In this document: positions 8,967 to 58,884 of the stretch, piece by piece
Layout: the number at the start of each line of letters is the position of its first letter
How positions within the stretch are numbered: the stretch's first letter is position 1
From: Eledone cirrhosa
Lineage: Eukaryota
NCBI GenBank assembly: GCA_964016885.1
Contig: OZ024741.1
Span: 336,908,001 to 336,972,000, forward strand
Direction of reading: 5' to 3'
DNA length: 64,000 nucleotides
Notes under the pieces: model-generated
What the model saw: the letters and a program-made list of their open reading frames with translations, nothing else
Databases searched by the model: none
What the model was told of the DNA's origin: nothing
Position numbers and translations under genes: made by a program

Positions 8967-9057
8967 GTATGTATATATATATATGTATATATATATATGT
9001 GTATATATATATATATACAATATATTAAAATGGAAACTATATTTATAAAACCATAAT

Positions 9058-9122
9058 TATTTTATTATATATATTTCAAGAGCAACCAAGGCAGTCTTGG
9101 TGCGCTTTCATCAGATAAAATA
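9058..9122 (-). ncRNA. Type I minimal hammerhead ribozyme motif (mirror copy)
   Basis: Reverse complement reads tattttat CTGATGA aagcgcaccaagactgccttggttgctctt GAAA tatatata ataaaata. Confidence 0.8.
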
Positions 9123-9235
9123 CAAAATTTGTTTTATAAATAGTGACATAACCATGGTAAATTCGCTATCCAGCAAATTTTCAACCGTTAAGGTTGTTTT
9201 CCACAGTTATGTCACTATTTATAAAACTAATTTTG

Positions 9236-9300
9236 TATTTTATCTGATGAAAGTGCACCAAGACTGCCTTGGTTGCCCTTGAAATATATATAATAAAATA
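9236..9300 (+). ncRNA. Type I minimal hammerhead ribozyme motif
   Basis: Stem I tattttat/ataaaata; CTGATGA 9244-9250; stem II aagtgcaccaag-actgc-cttggttgccctt; GAAA 9281-9284; palindromic mini stem III ATATATAT; predicted AUA cleavage triplet ending 9292. Confidence 0.8.
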
Positions 9301-9430
9301 ATTATGGTATTTTAAATATAGTTTCCATTTTAATATATTGAATATTTACTCCAGTAACTGTTGAGTGCTCTATATCAGTTATAAACTTTTAAGTTTGTTG
9401 GAATCCCAACAAATTAAATATAACTTCTGC

Positions 9431-11591: not shown

Positions 11592-14100
11592 ATCATCATC
11601 ATCAGCATCATCTTCGTTTAACGTCTATCTTCCACGCTAGAATGGGTTAGACGGGAGTTGTCCCACTTGAGGCAAGGTTGGTCGCGTGACCGTGTTTCGC
11701 TCATATAGGACTATCTGGCAGGTTTTCTATGGCTGGATGCCCTTCCTAACACCAACCACATTTACAGTGTGGAACTGGGAACTTTTTACCGTGTTACCTA
11801 CACGTTACATTACAGCGTGGACTGTGTGTTTTTTTGTTGTGACACCTACACGATCTCGATCTCATTATCTCATTTATTTGGACTGGATGTTGTGGTACCA
11901 ACTTTACAGAGCGAGAGCGGTGTTGGTGGGAGTGGGAGGATAGGGTAGGGGTAGTGGATTGGGGTGTATATTTGGTTAAGAGGTGCCTACTGACTGTAGG
12001 TTTCGCTTTGTACATAGCGCCAAAGATCTCGGTCCAGTGACATTATCTTAGAGAGGTGCAAGTGTGTAAGGCCGGAATTTATCAGATCGTCCCAGGTTTT
12101 TCTGGGTCTACCTACTCCGTAACTACCATCAATTTTGATCGCTCTGCACTTTTTAGCTGTCATCTTTCATGCGCATCACGTGACCATACCAATGTAGTCT
12201 TCTCTCAAGTAAACAGCATCTGATCCCTCTTATTCCTAATTTCTCACTTAGTTCATTTATGCTTTGCCACTCACGTATATTACTATTACACATCCAACTG
12301 AGCATACAAGCTTCATTCCTCTCCAGTCTGCACAGGTCCTCTGCACGTAATGCCCATGTCTCACTGCCATGTAGCATTGCTATTCGTATACAGGGATCAT
12401 ACAATCTGCATTTCATTTTTAGAGAGAAACCTTTTGTGGCCAACAGCGGTATAAGCTCTCTGAACTTTTTCCCTCCCGTTCTGACTGGCTACTGTATTTT
12501 CAGAACACCCTCCACCACTGCTGATTTCGTCACCCAGGTAACGGAAAGTATCCACTATTTCTATAGAACCATCTGGGCAATAGAAGGAGCCTACTCCTTT
12601 CCTACACATGGCCATTTCCCTGAGAGCACCTGTGCCCTATTTTCCTTTCTACAAACTAGAACTTTAGTCTTAGACAAGTTAACTTTAAGGCCTTTTGATT
12701 CTAGGCAATGCTTCCATGTTTGGAATTTCTTCTCTAGTTCAGCCATTGATTCAGCTATGAGCGTTAGAGCATCTGCGTATAGGAGTTCCCATGGGCAGCC
12801 AGTCTTGAACTCCTCTGTTATAGCCTGAAGGGCAATAATAAATAGGAGGGGGCTAAGGACAGAGCCTTGATGAACACCAACTATTACACTAAACTCTTCA
12901 CAATATTCATTGTTAATTCTAACCTTACTGACTGTTTCTTTATAGCTTGTATAGCTCTCACAAGCCATTCATCTACACCTAGTTTTCTAAGAGCCCACCA
13001 GATAATGGAGTGAGCGAATCTGTCAAAGGCTTTCTCCAGGTCTACAAAAGCTAAGTAGAGGGATTTACCTTTAGCTAGGTACTTCTCCTGTAGTTGTCTT
13101 ATAAGGAAAAGAGCGTCTGTGGTACTTTTACATGACACAAACCCAAACTGCATTTCATCTAGATCAATTCACTCTCTGATTAGTTGCGCTATAACTCTTT
13201 CTGTAACCTTCATGAACTGGTCAACTAACTTAATGCCTCTATAGTTTCCCCTATCTAGAGCATCCCCTTTACCCTTGTAGCAGTTAATGATGATGCTGCT
13301 ACACCAGTCTTTTGGTATGACCCCATTCTGTATTACTTGGTTAACTATATGGGTGACCATAGTATGTCCCACCATTCCAGATGCCTTCAACATCTCAGCA
13401 ACTTTCTCCGAAGGCCCAGCTGCCTTGCCTGTCTTCATATCTTTGATTGCCTTACTTATTATACTACCTTCAACTTGCACCGCTGGTCCTTCTATTGGAT
13501 CGATTTGGGGCAGACTATCTTTTTCCCATTTATTCTCCTCATTTAATAGTCTCTCATAGTGACACTTCTAGGCTATCTTCTTATCAGTATCAGTGAGGCC
13601 AAGTACACCATTATCATTACGGACACACTTCTCCCCGACAATATCACGGTTTTCCTTGACACATTGTCTAGCAATCCTGAACACCTCACGTTTTTGGTAC
13701 TCACGTTGTAGAATATGCTTGAACTTTCTATCCTCTGCTACCCTTTTTGCAAGATACACTTGTCTCCTAGCTTCTCTCCTGGCCACTTGATAGTGTTCTC
13801 TACTTCCCCCATCCTGCAATACTTTCCAAGCCTGCTTTTTGGCCTTGATTGTCTCTTCTACCTTACTGTTCCACCACCAAGTTACTCTCCTCCTGCCAAT
13901 AGGTCTGCTCCAACCACAGATTTCATCCGTTGCTTTCAGCAGGTTCACTTTCAAGAATTGCCACTGTTCCTCTATATTGCATGTCTCTAATTGCTCTTCC
14001 TTATTTCCAAAGGCATCAAGTAATAAGCTTTTAAATTTGTCACTGGTTATGGGGTCCTTCAACTTCCATATTCTTCTCCTCAAGGTAGGCCTTCTCTGAT
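11592..14100 (-). mobile_element. Decayed RTE-clade LINE (subfamily A), frameshifted, YADD changed to YADA
   Basis: ORF fragments 13568-14083 (TWWWN), 13169-13480 (KGKGDALDRGNYRGI), 12884-13153, 12591-12968 and 12153-12443. Shares the 3'UTR with the 15990 copy. Confidence 0.9.
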
Positions 14101-14686
14101 GTCATATATATATATACACACACACACAAACATATGTGTGCGTGCGTTAAACTGATGTTTATGTCGGTGGTGGTGGTGGTGACAATGCCGATGGTGGTGA
14201 TGACGATGATGATTTATAAAACATATTTTATATATTTTAAATCAAATAGTACAACTTCCCTAATATTTTCAATTGACATTTAAATCTTTCTCTTTCTCCT
14301 CAATCAATAATACCTCCATTTATATTTTAACACTTAATATTTTGAAATAGTTATAAATTTTTTCTTTCCTGTAGCTATCCCATAATTAATTTTGAAAGGT
14401 GCTTATTGCAAGTGATTAACGACTCACATTAATTTTCAAATTTATTCATTTAGTGCTTTAGCAGGCAAACAGAGTCATATTAAGTTCATATTTGTTTGGT
14501 ATGAAAAATTTCTGATACAGTATGAACATGTTTTATAGTAACCCCAAATAATTGGAGAAATGGAACTCTGTACAAGCTTAACATTTTTCCTTGTTAATAA
14601 TTATATGGTGTTCTCAATCCATGAAGCAGAGATCTGTATATACATATATATATATGTGTATGTGTATATATATATATGTGTATGTG

Positions 14687-14765
<79 letters not shown>

Positions 14766-14812
14766 GTATGTATATATTGATATATGAATGCATGTATGTA
14801 TATATATATATG

Positions 14813-14846
<34 letters not shown>

Positions 14847-14849
<3 letters not shown>

Positions 14850-15858
14850 TCATCATCATCATCATTTTATGTCTGCTTTTCCCTGCTTGCAGGGGTTGGA
14901 TGGGTCCTATTCAGCACAGCATCACTCCACTTGCCACGGTCCTTCGTCATCTCCTTGGTGAGTTTCAGCGATCTGAGGTCTGCTCTTACCACCTCCGCCC
15001 ATGTTTTTTGTGGTCTACCTCTACTGCTTCTTCCTTCTACTGGGATTTCTTGGCACTTCTTTACCCAGCGGTCATCCTCCATGCGCATCACATGTCCATA
15101 CCATCTCAGCCTTCTCTCCTGCACACCCCAACTCATCCCTCTTATACCCAGTTTCTTTCTCAACTCATCTATGCTTGGTCATTCACGCACATTGGCATTC
15201 CACATCCAATAGAACATACTTGCCTCATTTCTCTTCAGCCGTCGCATATATCCTGCAGTTGCTGCCCATGTCTCACTACCATGCAGCATCGCACATCTCA
15301 CACAGGCATCATATAACCGTCCTTTCGTATACAGGGAGAAACCCTTCTTTGTCAACAAAGGAAGCAGCTCCCTAAACTTCTTCCAACCCGTCCTTATTCT
15401 AGATACTATGGCCTCGGAACACGCCCCTCCTATGTTAATCTGATCATCTAGGTACCAGAAGCTATCAACCACTTCTATAGAACCCATCTGCATTGGAAAA
15501 ATGTGTCTATCACTGCGGTTACTACTGCCAACTTTCTCTGTACATCTACTGCATACGTAGTTTTCCCTACCTGTTAGTTTGCCTGCTATTCCACTACATC
15601 CCTTGTGTACCCAAGATCTGCATTGCGTACATTTTGGGGAATTTATGCCAGTTCCTTTCCTACATATCGAACATGGCCATTTCCCTGATGGAATCAGAGT
15701 ATTGTCCTCTCTTCTACTTATCAACACTTTTGTTTTAGTTATGTTCACTCTCAGTCCTCTTGATTCCAACTGCTGTTTCCATAGCCAGAATTCATTCTCT
15801 AGCTCCTCTACTGATTCTGCTATAAGAACCAGATCATCAGCATAGAGAAGTTCCCAGC
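14847..15858 (-). mobile_element. 5'-truncated RTE-clade LINE (subfamily B)
   Basis: ORFs 15179-15904 and 14867-15163: WELLYADD, CSIC..C..C..H..C..C..C, RLRWYGHVMRM; (GAT)n tail. Confidence 0.88.
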
Positions 15859-15988
15859 TGTAGAAAACCTGCCAGATAGTCCTATATGAGTGAGACACGG
15901 TCACACGACCAGCCTTGCCTCAAATTGGGACAACTCCCATCTAACCCATGCTAGCATGGAAGATGGATGTTAAACGATGATGATGATG
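15855..15988 (+). mobile_element. Inverted 3'UTR fragment of RTE subfamily A
   Basis: Reverse complement of 11610-11735; ends in (GAT)n. Confidence 0.8.
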
Positions 15989-15989
15989 A

Positions 15990-17670
15990 TCATCATCATC
16001 ATCATCATCAACGTTTAACGTCCGTGTTCCACGCTTGCATGGGTTTGGACGGGGGTAGTCCCACTTGAGGCAAGAGTGATTGTCTTGCTCGCATAGGACT
16101 GTCTGGCAGGTTTTCTACAGTTGGATGCCCTTCCTAACACCAACCACATTTACAGTGTGGGTCTGGGAGGTTTTTACCGTGTTGCCTACACGGCCACATT
16201 ACAGCGTGGACTGTGTGTTTTTTTGTCGTGACACCTACACGATCTCATTTGTTTCGGCCTCGATGGCGCGGCACCAACATAACTTTACATAGAACGGGGT
16301 GGTGTGGATCGGGTGGGGGTGGTGGTGGTGGGACGGGGTGTATTTTGTTAGAGATGCCTACTGGCTGGAGTAGGTTTTACTATATATTTAGGTAAGGCGG
16401 GTCTTCTCTGTTACTGAGTACCGCCAAAGGTCTCGGTCCAGTGACATTGTCTTGGAGAGGTGTAAGTGTGTGATGTCGGAGTTTATCAGCTCGTCCCAGG
16501 TTTTTCTAGGTCTGCCTATTCCGTGACTACCGTCTATCTTTATTGCCCTGCACTTTGTTATACAGCTATCGACTTTCATGCGCATCACGTGTCCATACCA
16601 ACGTAGCCTTCTCTCGAGTAAACAACATCTGATCCCTCTTATCTCTAATTTTTTCCTTAGTTCGTTTATGCTTTGCCGTTCACGTATATTACTGTTACAC
16701 ATCCAGCGGAGCATGCAAGCTTCGTTCCTCTCTAGTCTGCGTATATCCTCTGCACACAATGCCCAGGTCTCACTGCCATGCAGCATTGCTGTTCGTATGC
16801 AGGCATCGTACAACCTGCCTTTCATTTTTAGTGAGAACCCTTTAGCAGCTAATAGTGGTATAAGCTCTCTGAACTTTTTCCAACCAGTTCTGACTCTAGC
16901 TACAGTACTTTCAGAGCACCCTCCCCCACTGCTGATTTTATCGCCCAGGTAACGGAAGCTGTCCACTATTTCTATAGAACCCTCTGCGCAATTGAAAGAG
17001 CTAGTAGTTTGTGGGCACTTGCTGCTACTTATTGCACCAGAGCACCGGCCACATGTAAAATCTATGTTCTTAGTTAGCTTACCTGTGATCCCACTACATC
17101 TTTTATGCACCCATACTTTGCATTTAGGACATAAAATGGAGTTTCTACCTACGCCTTTCCTACACACCGAGCACGACCATTTCCCAGAAGGGACCGCCGC
17201 CTTGTTTTCTTTCCTACAAACTAGTACTTTGGTCTTAGCCAGGTTAATTTTAAGTCCTTTTGACTCTAGGCCGTGCTTCCATGTTTGGAATTTCTTCTCT
17301 AGCTCGGCCATTGATTCCGCTATGAGTGTCAGGTCGTCTGCGTATAGGAGTTCCCATGGGCAGCCTGTCTTGAACTCCTCTGTTATAGCCTGAAGGGCAA
17401 TAATAAATAGTAGTGGACTGAGAACAGAGCCCTGATGGACGCCAACTTTTACGCTAAACTCTTCACTATATTCGTTGTTAATTCTAACCTTGCTGACTGT
17501 TTCTTTATACATGGCTTGTATAGCCCTCACAAGCCATTCGTCAACGCCTAGTTTTCTAAGAGCCCACCAGATAATGGAGCGGGGGACTCTGTCGAAGGCT
17601 TTCTCCAAGTCGACAAAAGCTAAGTAGAGGGGTTTACCTTTAGCTAGGTACTTCTCCTGTAGTTGTCGTA
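15990..17670 (-). mobile_element. 5'-truncated RTE-clade LINE (subfamily A); uninterrupted RT C-terminal ORF 16388-17670 plus 3'UTR and (GAT)n tail
   Basis: AFVDLEKAFD, GVHQGSVLSPLLF, LLYADD, FRYLG, RLRWYGHVMRM and GRPRKTW motifs. The ORF start at 17698 is a SINE/(TA)n artefact. Confidence 0.92.
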
Positions 17671-17687
17671 CTATATATATATATGTG

Positions 17688-17968
17688 TGGAGGCGCATGG
17701 ACTAGTGGTAAGGGTGTTGGACTTATGATCATAATGTCGTTGGTTCGATTCCTGGGATGCGTGTTGTGTTCATTTCACATTCATTGGTCCAGTATACTCA
17801 GCTGAAAATGAGTACCTGCAATAGCTGGGTGTTTAACCCTGCAATAGACTGGCATTCTGTCCAGGGGGGTGGGGGTGGGGGGTCTTGTACTCTCAGTGGC
17901 TTCACGCCATTAAACCTGGATAAACACCGGCCAAATGAGCCTTCTGGCATAAGACAGACGTTAGACTT
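17688..17968 (+). mobile_element. SINE family B
   Basis: Aligns to 23053-23337 with an internal deletion. Confidence 0.8.
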
Positions 17969-17994
17969 TATACATATGTACATATGTATATATA

Positions 17995-18570
17995 TCATCA
18001 TCATTTTCATCATCATTTTACGTCCGCTTTTCCCTGCTTGCAAGGGTCGGACGGGTTCTATTCAACACAGCATCTCTCCACTTGTCATGGTCTTTTGACA
18101 TCTCCTCCGTGAGCGTCAGTGATCCGAGCTCTGCTCTCACCATCTCCTCCCATGTTTTTCGTGGTCCTCCTCTACTGCATCTTCCTTCTACTGGGATTTC
18201 TTGGCACTTCTTTACCCAGTGGTCATCCTCCATGCGCATCACATGTCCATACCATCACAGTCTTCTCTCCTGCACACTACAACTTATCCCTCTTATACAC
18301 AGTTTCTCTCTCAACTCGTCAATGCTTAGTCATTCACACACATTGACATTGCACATCCAATGGTGCATACTTGCTTCATTTCTCTTCAGCCGTAGCATAT
18401 CCACTGCAGTTGCTGCCCTTGTCTCACTACCATGCAGCATCACGCATCTTACACAGGCATCATATAACCAGCCTTTCGTACGTAGGGAGAAACCCTTCTT
18501 TGTCAACAGAGGAAGCAGTTCCGTAAACTTCTTCCAACTCGTCCTTATTCTAGATACTATGGCCTCGAAA
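17995..18570 (-). mobile_element. RTE subfamily B 3' fragment
   Basis: Colinear with 14850-15420 (MRMEDDHWVKKCQEIPVEG). Confidence 0.88.
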
Positions 18571-18804
18571 CATATATATATACACAGATCTCTGCTTCAA
18601 GGATATAAATATATATATAATTAGCTCCAACAGTGACATATACAGGCAATTAAGTTTTATTGAGTTATACACCCAACTCATTCAGCCTATTATCACAACA
18701 AAGATGTCCTCTGTGTGTGTGTATGTGCGTGTGTTAAACTGATGTTTATGGTTTAGAGCCACATGATCCTTATATATATTATATATTTATCTCTTCTGAT
18801 ACAT

Positions 18805-33000: not shown

Positions 33001-33904
33001 AGAATTTAGCATTCAACTTTCAATAACCTATCAATAAAATCATATATTTACATTACTGCAACACAATCCCACCGCCACACTTAATGTCTTCAAACATGTT
33101 TGCTAAAGCTATTATTTTGATTTCAGTAAGAAAATTGCGTTAGCTTTCAAACAGTCCATATATCATTTTATACATCAACGGCAGTATAATTTTGACAAAT
33201 ATACTATTAATTTTCTATTTGTTAGCGCATATATCTAAGGACTTCTTTCTACAGCAATCGTATTTACTTTTCTTATTTGTATTTACACCAGTGCAAATAC
33301 AAACATGTATATTTATCATAGCATTGTCATGATCAACACCCTTGCTTTTGTCGCAACCATTATTGCTGTTTTAAACATTCATTTATTCATCAGTGTGGAG
33401 TCTGAATGAATAGTTGCCATACATCAGAAATTGCTGATCCAAGAATTTTGTATGTTAAACTGCTTGCAGTGAAGTTGCTGAAAACATTTATTTTTTTAGT
33501 TCTTGAGTTTTTTTTTTCCCCCATATTTACAGTTTTTTGTGAGAGGCAGTTTCTACAACCTTTTTAACCACTACATTCTGACATGCACACTTTTTGTACA
33601 CATGTGTATATATATATATATATGTATTTATATATATATATAGGAAAAGAGTCAGGACCCCAACTCTACTACCCTAAGTATTGAGTACTCTGGTCGTTAT
33701 GGTCCACCTGGTATCTTACCACACCCTCTTGGTTATCTATATATATAGTATGATGAGCTATTGATTTCAGAGTTGAGCCCGATCACTACTGATCATAACT
33801 TGAGCTGATCAATCATGAAATGTACATCATGTATGAATAAACATAATGATGCTATATTGATACTTTGTTTTTGCTCCTTATTATTATTATTATTGCTATT
33901 ATTA

Positions 33905-34620
33905 TCCAGCATAGTTACGTCCCTTTACGATCTGAGTTCAAATCCCTCCGAGGTTGACTTTGCCTTTCATCCTTACGGGGTCGATAAAATAAAGTACCAG
34001 TAATGCACTGGGTAATTGCTGGCCTTGTGCCTAAAGTAGAAACAATTATTATTATTATTACTATTATTATCCAGCATAGTTACGTCCCTTTACGATCTGA
34101 GTTCAAATCCCGCCGAGGTTGACTTTGCCTTTCATCCTTACGGGGTCGATAAAATAAAGTACCAGTAATGCACTGGGTAATTGCTGGCCTTGTGCCTAAA
34201 GTAGAAACAATTATTATTATTATTACTATTATTATTATTATGCTTTGCAACATAGAGTTATGGTCCTTTACGTTCTGATTTCAAATCCCGCCAAGTTAAC
34301 TTTGCCTTTCATCCTTACTGGGTTAATAAAATAAAGCACCAGTAATGCACTGGGGGTTATTGCTGGCCTTGTACCAAAAGTAGAAATATTATTATTATTA
34401 TTTTTATTGTGGATTGGCAGTATCGGTAGAGGGTCGGACGCCATGCTTTGCAGCATAGTTACATCCTTTTACGGTCTGAGTTCAAATCCTGCTGAGGTTA
34501 ACTTTACCTTTCATTCTTACAGGGTCGATAAAATAAAATACCAGTCATGCACTGGGGTCGATTTAATGTACCCCTCCCCCCAAATTGCTGGCTTTGTGTC
34601 TATATAAGAAACCATTATTA
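33905..34620 (+). mobile_element. Head-to-tail array of four SINE family A copies
   Basis: Units start at about 33905, 34070, 34240 and 34408, separated by (ATT)n. The first two are nearly identical (165-bp period). Confidence 0.88.
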
Positions 34621-42134: not shown

Positions 42135-42179
<45 letters not shown>

Positions 42180-42286
42180 GTATGTATATATGTATGTATG
42201 TATATATATATATATGTATATATGTGTATATATATGTATGTATATATGTATGTATATGTATATATGTATATATATATGTATATATG

Positions 42287-42322
<36 letters not shown>

Positions 42323-42446
42323 AATATGTATGTATATATACATATATAAATATATATAGGTAAGTTATTCCGGGTTGAATCGGAGGTAACCACAGTAAGT
42401 AAGGTACTCAATACATAGCAGAGTATAAAAGTTTTAATATAGATGA

Positions 42447-42495
42447 GATTCTACATGACTAGAACTGTTTCATTCTTTAGAAATCATCAGGAATC
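42447..42495 (-). ncRNA. Type I hammerhead ribozyme motif (mirror copy)
   Basis: Reverse complement: gattc CTGATGA tttctaaagaat GAA ACA gttctagtca TGT A gaatc. Confidence 0.68.
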
Positions 42496-42499
42496 TCAG

Positions 42500-42548
42500 G
42501 ATTCCTGATGATTTCTAAAGAATGAAACAGTTCTAGTCCTGTAGAATC
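42500..42548 (+). ncRNA. Type I hammerhead ribozyme motif (variant U.U at base of stem II)
   Basis: gattc CTGATGA t-ttc-taaa-gaa-t GAA ACAG-ttctagtc-CTGT A gaatc. Stems I and III pair, and the predicted GUA site ends at 42543. Confidence 0.72.
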
Positions 42549-42619
42549 TCATCTATATATATATATATGTATATATGTATATATATATATATGTATATAT
42601 GTATATATATATATATGTA

Positions 42620-42656
<37 letters not shown>

Positions 42657-42761
42657 ATATATGTATATATATATATATGTATATATGTATATATATATAT
42701 ATGTATATATGTATATATATATATATATGTATATATGTATATATATATATATGTATATATG

Positions 42762-42826
<65 letters not shown>

Positions 42827-43620
42827 GTATATATGTATATATATATGTATATATGTATATATATATATATATATGCTTATATATATGTATATATATATAT
42901 GTATATATATGTATATATACACACATATAAATAATTACACACATACACACACACATATATATACATACACACATTCATTTTCTTTCACTGCATCTTATTT
43001 TTTTTATTTATTTACTTGTTTATTTATTTATTTATTTATTTTTGTTGGTAGCTGACAACAACTCTGTTTCGGAAATTATTCTTGCTTTACATTATTGTGT
43101 TGAAAATTGGAATTTTAATTTGTTAATTCAAACTGAGGCTGGGTTTAATTCAAACCAGACAGATTGCTATCTGTTTTCATTGTAAAAAAAAAAAAAAAAT
43201 ATATATAACAACAACAACAACAATAATAATAATAATAACAACAATAATAAGAGAAAACAATACAATTTATGCTTTGAATCAGTTTATCTTCTCCATTTCC
43301 CATGCAATTAAGGTGAATATCTTTTTTTTTTGCAAAGAAAAGCACTTTGTCAACTAAACTTATCAAATCACAAATGTATACTTGATATATACATGTATAT
43401 ATTCATATATATGCATACATACATCTACTACAAATTATCTACACACCCATATATACATACGTATGGATTTACATATATGATGATGATGTATGTGCATATA
43501 TATATGTGTGTATATATACATATATATATAAAAATATATATATTTATTAAAATATGTATGTATATAAGTGTGTATTTATGTATATGTGTATGTATGTATA
43601 TGGATATGGATGTATATATG

Positions 43621-49237: not shown

Positions 49238-49357
49238 TGGGTTCAATCGAGGGTAACCATAGTAAGTAAGGTACTAAATACATTAGTAGAACATATACAA
49301 AATTTAATAAAGAAATGGCTTCTACAGGTCTAGAACTGTTTCATTCGAAGGAAATCA
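49238..49357 (-). mobile_element. Truncated second copy of the 42371 element (hammerhead lacking its 5' CTG and stem I)
   Basis: ggtaaccatagtaagtaaggtactaaatac...ttctacaggtctagaactgtttcattcgaaggaaatca aligns to 42385-42486, then is cut by (TA)n. Confidence 0.7.
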
Positions 49358-49737
49358 TATATATATGTATATATATATATGTGTGTGTGTGAGTGTTGAA
49401 CAATGAAACAAAAGGTGAAGTTTAGTACTTAATCACCTCATAGTTTCAGAAGGTTGATTATCATGATAAATCAATGTAGCAACTAATCAATAGTAGTTAT
49501 ATATATATATATATATAACAACTGAATCTGAATTGGCAATGCCTTACAGATATATAACGGTATGGCTGAGATAATTCCATTTATTTGAGAATCCACAAGT
49601 CTCATGAGCTATTGATTGCAGAGTTGGGCCTGGTCACTACCGATTGTACTTTGAGTTGATTGATTGCAAGATGTGTGTCATGTGTGAATAAATATGTTGT
49701 TGTTATATTGATACTTCATTCCTGCTCCTTATATATA

Positions 49738-55566: not shown

Positions 55567-55850
55567 TTTGTCAATATTTGAACATCTTAAATTCAAGAAT
55601 CTGAACATCTTAGTTTACCCTGCTTTCTTTAGTTTGCCTTGTTTTGCCTAATATTTAAATATTTTGAATTCAGAAATCAGTGTAGCCTAGTTAAAATTGT
55701 TTACCCTATTTTGGCAATATGTAAATATCTTAAATTCAGGAATCTGAAGGGCATAGTTGAAATTATGTTTGCCCTATTTTGTCAATATTTAAATATCTTA
55801 AATCCAAGAATCAGAAGGACATAGTTGAAATTATGTTTGCCCTGTTTTGT
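55567..55850 (+). repeat. Degenerate ~68-bp tandem repeat overlapping the protocadherin start codon
   Basis: catagttgaaattATGtttgccct with ATG at 55765 and 55833; more decayed units further upstream. Confidence 0.8.
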
Positions 55851-58232
55851 ATGATATTGTTTTATTTATATAGTTATTGCTTGAGTGTAGATTTTACATA
55901 TCACATTAAGGAGGGTAATATGCCAATGTCATATGTCGGAGATATTGCAGTGGACACTCATATGATACAGAAGATTAAATTTGAGGAACAACATTTAATT
56001 AGGTTTACTCAACTACAAAAAGACAAAGAAAATGCTTCCCAGTTGTTTAATATTTCAAAAGAAGGGAAATTCTACGTAATCCAAACTCTAGATGCAGAAA
56101 AAATTTGTAAATATAAAAAGAAATGCTTCAGAATTGTAGATGTTGCTATGCAGAAGAGGGAAATATTTGTTCAAATTTTAGAGATAAAAGTGGTTGTAGA
56201 AGACATCAACGACCATGAACCTGTTTTTCCAGTGAAGCAGATAACTCTTAAGTTTTCTGAGGGGGATAAAAGGGGAACTACTTTATCAATTCCAAATGCC
56301 ATTGACGAAGACATTAGTGAAGAAAATTCAAAGATAGTATATGAGCTATTGACTAAAAATAATAACGGTCCTTTTATAATGGTGGTTTCTGAAAGAGTAG
56401 ATGGTTCATATTCCGTTGGAATAACTTTAGAAAAAGAATTAGATAGAGAAATGAAAGATCATTATTATTTCGAAGTAATTGCTAAAGATGGAGGAAAGCC
56501 ATCTAAACATGGAATCTTGAAAGTTTATATATCTGTTTTAGACATTAATGATAACTTGCCATTTTTTTCTCAAAGTGCTTATAATATTTCAATAAATAAT
56601 AGATATGACGTAAAGAAAGTATTAATAGATTTAGATGCTAATGATCTTGACGCTGGTAAAAATGGTAGAGTCTCCTACCATTTTAGCTCAAAAACTTCAG
56701 AAATAACAAAACTACAATTTCGATTGAATGAAATAACTGGAGAAATATTTCTCTGTGAAGATTTCCCTTTTGAGAAACGTCAGACATATGAATTGTATGT
56801 GGAAGCCACTGATGGAGGAAATCCTCCTCTCATTTCTATTACTATGGTACTTGTCAATGTTGTCAACCAACAGAATAATGCTCCCATTATTGACATGAAT
56901 TTTGTTTCTAAATCATCCAACAATATGGCTACCATATCAGAAAATACAAAGATTGGTAGTTTTATTGCATACTTAAAAATTTCTGATAATGATACAGGAC
57001 AAAATGGAAAAGTGACTTGCTATCTGCATCATGATATATTCAAACTTCAAAATCTAGGTGAGAAAAAATACAAAGTAGTTCTGAAAAGTCTTGTTGATAA
57101 GGAAAAGGAAAGCCTTATCACTTTTAAAGTAATTTGTGAAGACAGAGGTTTTCCACGCTTGAGAACAGAAAAACAGTTCTCTGTTTTAGTAACTGATATT
57201 AATGATGTAATACCACAGTTTAACAAGGAAACCTACAAATTTTTGACCTATGAGAATGAAGGGTCCAATTTTCCAATTGGATTTGTCAATGCTACTGACC
57301 CAGATATGGGATTAGGTGGGCACTTGACATTTTCTTTACTTTCTAAGAACAATGTTGCTCTTCCTTTCCAAATAACAAACTATGGATTTATATCAACAAC
57401 AAAATCACTTGACCGTGAACGCAAAGATATATATATCTTTCAGGTCTTAGTTAAAGACAGTGGAACTCCATCACTAAATAATACTGTTGATGTAATTGTT
57501 GAAGTCATGGATAAAAATGACAATGCTCCATATTTTACTTTCCCTAGTGTTAACCCTTTTAGCCTGGATGTCTTTTTCCAATCCCAAAATAACAATGATA
57601 TAACTAAATTGAAAGCTTATGACATAGACAGTAGAGAGAATTCTTTTCTTAGGTATGAAATATTAGATGGGAATAAAAAGGAATTATTTACAATTAATTC
57701 TTACACAGGGATATTATCTTTTTCTCGAAATGTTTACCAAAGCGAGGCAGGAGTATATAATCTCTTGTTTGTTGTCAAAGACAATGGAATTCCAATTCTT
57801 TCTACAACCACCTCTCTGTCCTTAAATCTGGTTGCTAGCAATAATACATTTCCCTTGTTAACAATACCAATCAATGAGTTAGATTTCAAAATACAAATGA
57901 ATTTATTTCTTGTGATCATAGCAGCAGCAGTATCGGGCTCTATCATTATGGTCATTTCAATAACAATATGTGTTGTAAAGAAGTCCAACCAGAGAATGTC
58001 TTCTAAACAGAGAATCAATCCTTCAGACAGAATCTTCAGTATTGATAAGGAAATACAAAATACTCGTAAGCGAACACCTTATAATCCTCCACTACCTAGA
58101 GAAGAGACTCAGCAACATAATTTTCTTCAACAAGATAAAGAGAAAAACTTATCCAGTTATACTGCCACAATGAATGGGACAAACTTTAATAGCAGAGTTC
58201 CATACCAAGCAACTAGCAAGGAAATACACCAG
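55833..58232 (+). CDS. Pcdh: Protocadherin, large coding exon (signal peptide, 6 EC repeats, TM, start of cytoplasmic tail); continues in downstream exon(s)
   Basis: ORF track 55779-58259. First in-frame ATG at 55833 (MFALFCMILFYLYSYCLS, signal-like). Cadherin motifs TLDAEKIC..CF, DINDHEPVF, LDRE, DINDNLPFF, DINDVIPQF, DKNDNAPYF. Hydrophobic FLVIIAAAVSGSIIMVISITICVV. Phase-0 donor CAG|gtaaga after 58232 gives 800 codons. Family-level call only. Confidence 0.93.
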
Positions 58233-58884
58233 GTAAGATCTATATCTTCATTTTTTTAGTTTTGTTTTTATGATTCAAATTGTTATTAATTGTATAAACT
58301 GTACTATTGTATAAGTTGCAACTTATCTACTAGCCTTACAAAGCTTCAAATAAAAATTTATGGCCCATAGCACATAATAAATGTTGTATGAAAAAGGTGG
58401 TGTGAGTTGTAAAATCTATTCTGCTAGTTCTCAGGTTAGCCTTTGTTGATGGCAATGTTACTCCATTCTTTAAAGATTGTAGAGTATAGAGATTATTTAA
58501 TATAGTTCCATCTCTCAAGACAGCATTGGTCAACCTGAGGCTATGACAGAAGACAATTACTCAAGGTGCCAAGCAGTGGGGCTGAACCCAGAACCACATG
58601 GTTTTGAAACAAACTCCTTAACTCCACAACCATGCCTGGACCTGGCACTCTGTTTCACAATCGTTCACTACCTATTGTTGTAGGGGCAGTGATAAAGCAG
58701 CTAATATATTGTTTTTTTTAATGATATTGGACACATACAAAGATCAATCAGTACAGTTGGATATCTGGGAGCCATACTACCATGAAGAGTGTTATAATTA
58801 ATTAATTTATTAATTTATGTAAATATTTGTGAGGGAGTATGTATTTATTTTGTTTCTGTTTGTGATGATATGTATATCATTGAT

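Follow-up and report, generated by a model that had tools for sequence, protein, structure and literature searches.

A back-to-back hammerhead pair in Eledone cirrhosa as the probable stub of a high-copy Penelope-like element with an inherited U·U at the base of stem II

Two hammerhead motifs lying back to back near 42 kb in a 64,000-nucleotide stretch of Eledone cirrhosa DNA (hereafter the window) are, judging by their sequence, a 199-bp stub left where a high-copy Penelope-like element (PLE) inserted in truncated form. We consider it quite probable that the stub derives from a likely Hydra-clade element, consists of one tailed and one short arm set between (TA)n tracts, carries an inherited U10.1·U11.1 at the base of stem II, and arose by the mechanism proposed below. 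Read across genomic copies, U10.1·U11.1 is an inherited state of this family's predicted ribozyme, and the back-to-back layout is a known inverted-repeat insertion structure rather than a two-ribozyme device. The U·U variant and the inverted layout have both been published previously; what appears worth following is how widely U·U prevails in the genome and how sharply the palindrome ends fall into classes, the copies being likely to record how Penelope-like elements copy themselves. Publications are cited here by PMC identifier.

A strict type I hammerhead descriptor applied to both strands of the window matched only at 42447-42495 (minus) and 42500-42548 (plus), exactly where an earlier note on this DNA had placed two opposite-strand hammerheads, and a relaxed descriptor over the same 64 kb added solely a pair near 9 kb. 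Each arm reads, in order, stem I, CUGAUGA, U-UUC-UAAA-GAA-U, GAA, a stem III of 4 bp capped by a loop of 8 nt, and GUA, and the type I core (CUGANGA / GAAA / NUH) is present with its three stems, which in the plus arm measure 6 bp (I), 3 bp (II) and 4 bp (III), with stem I open. The plus-strand motif has C3 at 42505, U10.1 at 42512, U11.1 at 42523 and a GUA triplet ending at 42543, after which cleavage is predicted; the minus-strand motif has C3 at 42490, U10.1 at 42483, U11.1 at 42472 and a triplet ending at 42452, and the U·U noticed earlier at the stem II base is present in both. Alternative stem II registers with a bulged U paired no better.

The whole insertion occupies 42360-42558 and is 97% identical to an element copy. 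Its long, tailed arm (42360-42496, minus; 97% over 137 bp against the element copy in locus L093) is a 5'-truncated Penelope-like terminal repeat that opens on the first base of stem I, takes in the hammerhead and closes with a tail (42360-42436, minus), a portion of the element leader that is found on this arm only and that in longer copies continues into an RT and GIY-YIG ORF. The short, tail-less inverted arm (42500-42558, plus; 98% over 59 bp against the element copy) carries the consensus form of the motif, and the sequence places the head-to-head junction of the two arms at 42497-42499. The segments 42437-42495 and 42500-42558 constitute a single inverted duplication with one mismatch in 59 bp, at 42456/42539, through which the minus copy has A at position 16.4 and, in stem III, a G·A mismatch in place of one pair; C occupies this position in 100 of 100 arms of the unbiased sample described below, and the A at 42456 is private to the minus copy. 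The (TA)n-type microsatellites on the left (42135-42358) and right (42554-42919) are the putative target site, and the identity of 97-98% to the element copy suggests a young insertion. The "back-to-back ribozymes" of the earlier note are thus real as a layout, although what they represent is one sequence duplicated during insertion, and not two cooperating ribozymes. A tblastn search of the window for an ORF remnant of this element was empty. We also considered a non-LTR retrozyme, built of head-to-tail tandem non-coding units of ~150-500 bp, and set it aside because the locus is a head-to-head pair.

Rfam scans of 42360-42560 and of the whole window made no hammerhead call (Hammerhead_3 scored at best 16.1 bits against a gathering score of 48.5) and returned only hairpin and microsatellite matches below threshold. 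Such a scan lacks sensitivity here, because at the gathering score it likewise found none at four retrozyme loci, including the G-C loci L097 and L100.

Elsewhere in the window, a diverged second copy belonging to the other subfamily lies at 49239-49358 (minus; 80% over 121 columns) and comprises the tail and a hammerhead without C3-G5 and without the 5' strand of stem I. As had been claimed for a homolog at 49319-49357, it keeps U·U and has CUUC as loop II; the copy extends further than that claim allowed. Equally sound was the view that the 42 kb motifs are unrelated to the family at 9 kb, with which they share words of at most 11 nt (best E 0.11). The 9 kb pair (9055-9303; C3 at 9114 on the minus and 9244 on the plus strand) also consists of divergent inverted hammerhead-like motifs; they have A10.1-U11.1, their stem II is long and their stem III is formed by an AT palindrome, and the pair probably represents another Penelope-like family. 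The window further contains an open frame of 832 codons with five cadherin repeats, protocadherin-like (55761-58256, plus), a 165-bp tandem of about three copies that resembles a SINE-like repeat seen at other loci (33880-34402), and several minus-strand RT fragments at 12184-18621, which from their motifs we take to be LINE-like.

The state of positions 10.1 and 11.1 across the family was read from the 3.0-Gb genome with a pattern that left all 12 stem II positions free and fixed the core and half of stem III. It returned 24,564 matches against 0 for a reversed control, and because so much of the motif is fixed, this count and those derived from it are lower bounds. U..U stood at 10.1/11.1 in 23,720 of the 24,564 (96.6%); neither position was U in 13, only two of which had G..C, and these double changes compare with 7.5 expected under independent decay (P 0.04). 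A hidden G-C subfamily was sought among them and rejected, the two G-C cases being mutually dissimilar. An unbiased sample, the first 100 family-pattern matches on contig C1 refetched in full, gave the same picture, with U·U in 97 arms across 20 loop II sequences, the two commonest of which were roughly equal in frequency (30 and 25 of the 100 arms). The proposal that U·U is a family feature rather than decay is therefore upheld: in the pattern search it is near-fixed, with no canonical-pair consensus, and the family departs from the R10.1-Y11.1 pairing rule (usually G-C) of type I hammerheads.

The stems of this family differ in how their pairing is supported. Stem I shows a compensatory change between subfamilies, A-U in 48 and C-G in 15 of the 68 arms in which it is intact (the other 32 of the 100 being truncated or unscorable). 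No covariation within the family was seen for stem II in the 100-arm sample, and its pairing consequently rests on complementarity, while half of stem III was preset by the search pattern. An apparent arm-specific difference at position 16.4, where 30 loci first gave A in 30 of 30 tailed arms and C in nearly all short arms, proved to be an ascertainment effect, since the query itself had A and words of very high frequency are ignored by the search; in unbiased samples C stood in 57 of 59 and 100 of 100 arms, 30 arms being common to both.

The suggestion of the earlier note that the U·U motif may be an undescribed hammerhead variant does not stand, as natural U10.1-U11.1 hammerheads are already in print. 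One was reported as a tolerated exception (PMC3088659, section 8), about 60,000 copies of the self-cleaving axolotl HHR_Amex2 have U·U at the base of helix II (PMC7229834), and File S2 of PMC8557442 has U at both positions in 14 of 25 Hydra-clade families by our own tally, in which two rows are identical, even though the table labels them canonical.

The carrier of the family was recognized from copies in which the longer 3' end continues into an ORF, three of which were extended. In all three the first ATG lies 136 nt past the cleavage site and the frame is shifted or interrupted; the ORF carries the motifs RWR, DKT, YRDD, CxCx5C, TYIG, CxxC and CxH. One of them, L094, has the full layout of repeat, ORF, interrupted 3' region and a second direct repeat with tail. 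Pfam found nothing for the RT part of the element ORF and a sub-threshold GIY-YIG match (E 0.008), and a PDB sequence search with the RT part gave nothing meaningful (best E 0.17); scoring of 8,000 candidates identified 1,853 ORF homologs, RVT_1 or GIY-YIG matches being present in some. A single RT and GIY-YIG ORF (recognized by YRDD, TYIG and its homologs, its own Pfam matches being weak or absent), direct pseudo-LTRs around that ORF, an inverted 5'-truncated copy and a one-sided tail together match an EN+ Penelope-like element. Within these, the replacement of DKG by DKT, the CxCx5C linker, CxxC and CxH near the end of the endonuclease, insertion into (TA)n and the presence of a hammerhead point to the Hydra clade, which is defined by such motifs together with (TA)n targets (PMC8557442, section 11). 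On these features the element likely belongs to the Hydra clade. Endonucleases of that clade lack a CCHH motif; in the present one, by inspection of the sequence, a pair of Cys spaced 9 residues apart precedes TYIG and HxH follows it. No description of this octopus family, as Penelope or as retrozyme, was found in the literature searched, repeat databases and subscription journals lying outside the scope of that search.

Several further observations attach to the copies of this family. Logan contigs from four runs of unrecorded kind were compared with L093; contigs of this sort say nothing about RNA starts, RNA ends or expression. At L093 (2271-2349), those of three runs link the short 3' end to just upstream of the hammerhead, and the resulting 77-78 bp head-to-tail unit may be a minimal tandem retrozyme that arose from this family. 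At L093 (2331-2465) and L094 (2464-2598), no stop codon interrupts the frame between the base following the cleavage site and the first ATG, a stretch of 45 codons that continues into the ORF; chance, a non-AUG start or a leader with an intron might each explain it. Other GIY-YIG or RT ORF fragments adjoin family copies at L050, L051, L057, L059, L061 and L092, and show that several other families of Penelope-like elements exist in this genome.

An inverted, 5'-truncated copy whose tail is on one side is a PLE structure already described (PMC8557442, PMC3846280), the origin of whose inverted repeats and tails is called open in PMC8557442. In this genome two family cores lie within 15 nt of each other at 4,755 loci (control 1). 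The 100-arm sample held 19 divergent pairs, in 18 of which exactly one arm was tailed (both in 0, neither in 1), and loop II was identical between the arms in all 19. Most copies end ~20 or ~90 nt past the cleavage site, and both the short and the tailed 3' ends also occur in arms for which no partner was detected nearby. Among 58 distinct arms of the main subfamily, the 5' end fell 0-8 nt before C3 in 37 (at 5-6 nt in 22), 9-90 nt before it in 3, and at least 94 nt before it in 18. A TATA box begins 36 nt before C3, so that the position 6 nt before C3 is TATA + 30 nt, the usual distance to a transcription start. Junction length varies among loci; many junctions overlap in the 5' strand of stem I, which is a near-palindrome, and extra bases are often present at junctions.

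These end classes are consistent with a mechanism of insertion modeled on the anole PLE, for which in vitro work showed that AT-rich DNA is cut on both strands by the protein and that, with uncleaved sense RNA as template, two internal RT starts bound the tail (PMC11167929). In our proposal, transcription from a promoter in the terminal repeat would begin on stem I, at its first base, TATA + 30 nt, and the element protein would cut both strands of a (TA)n target. With the 5' repeat of an RNA still uncleaved as template, both target ends might then prime RT, one ~20 and the other ~90 nt past the cleavage site, and each copy would run off the 5' end of that RNA. Joining of the two cDNA ends, with short overlaps or extra bases, would yield a small palindrome with one tailed arm, one short arm and its junction at the start site. 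The ribozyme, for its part, would process multi-unit transcripts, weakly, as a dimer or with the aid of protein.

The strongest competitor, which we regard as unlikely though deserving of attention, keeps the same element and the same U·U but has the palindrome arise by fold-back self-priming, of either an antisense template, as proposed in PMC3846280, or the first cDNA strand, the pile-up of 5' ends then marking an RT stop at stem I. PMC3846280 infers self-priming from palindromic junctions, and the near-palindromic 5' strand of stem I, in which many junctions overlap, speaks in its favor. Fold-back also accounts for the sharing of loop II in 19 of 19 pairs when the two main loop sequences are near-equally frequent, although this fits copying of one strand no better than two primings on one RNA. 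Against it, arms without a partner show both the short and the tailed 3' ends that two priming sites predict, the 5' pile-up coincides with TATA + 30 nt, extra bases are frequent at junctions, and the template in vitro is sense RNA (PMC11167929). Two-site priming on a single RNA remains our preferred account.

A different doubt concerns the ribozyme itself, and is to our minds slightly less probable again: the family hammerhead may be a catalytically dead relic, its U·U and other features being kept as promoter or protein-binding sequence. Folding predictions lend this some weight, the active fold differing from the MFE structure in the plus arm (-4.2 vs -7.6 kcal/mol, 3.4 kcal/mol above) and in the minus arm (-1.8 vs -11.6 kcal/mol). 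Insertions, moreover, traverse the cleavage site, which implies uncleaved templates, ribozyme mutants of the anole element were without effect on insertion in vitro (PMC11167929), and PLE hammerheads cleave poorly in vitro, in a weak and dimer-dependent manner (PMC4209133). A dead relic is harder to reconcile with an intact core, a stem II that holds while loop II varies freely, a stem I that covaries, and the recurrence of U·U with unrelated stem II sequences in other families of this genome; nor does the mismatch preclude activity in axolotl, where a monomer of the U·U ribozyme reaches 22% cleavage in 1 h and a dimer does better (PMC7229834). When two hammerheads pair via the CUAG loop, the predicted double-hammerhead fold lies within 0.6 kcal/mol of the dimer MFE (-20.6 vs -21.2 kcal/mol). 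The family ribozyme is modeled here as probably weak, acting as a dimer or with protein help on multi-unit transcripts. The 42 kb stub itself is probably inert, because read-through RNA is predicted to form a 59-bp hairpin that would hide the ribozyme.

It is highly improbable that the pair is a selected, locus-specific two-way device, such as a both-strand terminator near the protocadherin-like gene, despite two intact cores facing apart and a cadherin-repeat ORF 13 kb away, given 4,755 such loci in the genome, a private stem III mismatch in one arm, a -93.7 kcal/mol palindrome hairpin predicted for any transcript across both arms, and the near-identity to the element copy that marks the insertion as apparently young.

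Beyond this family, a general core pattern run genome-wide returned 91,896 unfolded matches with U..U (control 402) and 13,875 with G..C (control 228), a ratio of 6.6 to 1 in a census that covers these two patterns and leaves A-U, G-U and bulged forms outside the count. Eight loci drawn from the two lists (L095-L102) include tandem repeats with the canonical short palindromic stem III; L096 and L102 (U·U) and L097 and L100 (G-C) represent families whose flanks are visibly homologous by eye. Tandem units in these loci measure ~310, 424-500 and 466-470 bp, and orientation switches inside arrays. The literature searched, within the same limits as above, yielded no account of these tandem families, whether U·U or G-C, and the available part of a bioRxiv retrozyme preprint makes no mention of octopus.

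A bolder reading, which we offer tentatively and hold to be somewhat more doubtful than not, is that U·U is the main hammerhead form in this genome, found in several Penelope-like and retrozyme families that are unrelated and exchanged with G-C among homologous retrozymes, its slowness being tuned, and that two-site internal priming on the 5' repeat of uncleaved RNA produced the 4,755 mini-palindromes as finished insertions that mark the transcription start. If so, a slow U·U ribozyme would let RNA survive to be copied, and the mini-palindromes would amount to a genome-scale test of Penelope inversion and tail formation. Thousands of short palindromes with sharp 5' and 3' end classes make rival inversion models testable by counting. 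Searches requiring a 10.1-11.1 pair would miss most hammerhead-like motifs in this genome, and it was hits lacking this pair that were rejected from the final alignments of PMC3088659.

The known systems closest to this family resemble it in different respects. The hammerhead of PMC3088659 has the identical mismatch at the identical position, natural and tolerated; U·U is rare there (the garbled text of Figure S6 was read as naming phage PaP3), whereas it is fixed here. The axolotl HHR_Amex2 (PMC7229834) is likewise of type I, with U·U at the base of helix II and tens of thousands of genomic copies, but it belongs to a non-coding retrozyme in tandem units of 350 bp, and its helix III has 2 bp, while the present family is the terminal repeat of an ORF-bearing element and has a 4-bp stem III; activity has been demonstrated for HHR_Amex2 and is predicted for this family. 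Hydra-clade elements (for example Penelope-1 to -18_HM, Hydra-1_aJap, Hydra-1_cRog and Hydra-1_Obim; PMC8557442) share with it a short single ORF, a C-terminal GIY-YIG, DKT, the CxCx5C linker, CxxC/CxH, (TA)n targets and a type I hammerhead with a stem III of 3-4 bp, and an inverted 5'-truncated copy is noted for Penelope-13_HM. This family differs from that clade in a stem II of only 3 bp above the U·U, in a loop III of 8 nt with a CUAG palindrome instead of 1-3 nt, in an N-terminal RWR where the Hydra clade has RWK, and in its at least 24,564 copies; Hydra-1_Obim differs by eye in both hammerhead and N-terminal protein sequence, and is thus a separate element. Finally, the Poseidon element PAc of the green anole (PMC11167929) also has a terminal-repeat hammerhead, two 3'-end classes that bound the tail, and AT-rich targets, but it belongs to a different clade, and its ORF begins inside the hammerhead with RT starting within the ORF, whereas here the first ATG lies well downstream of the cleavage site, at 136 nt, and the tail ends before it.
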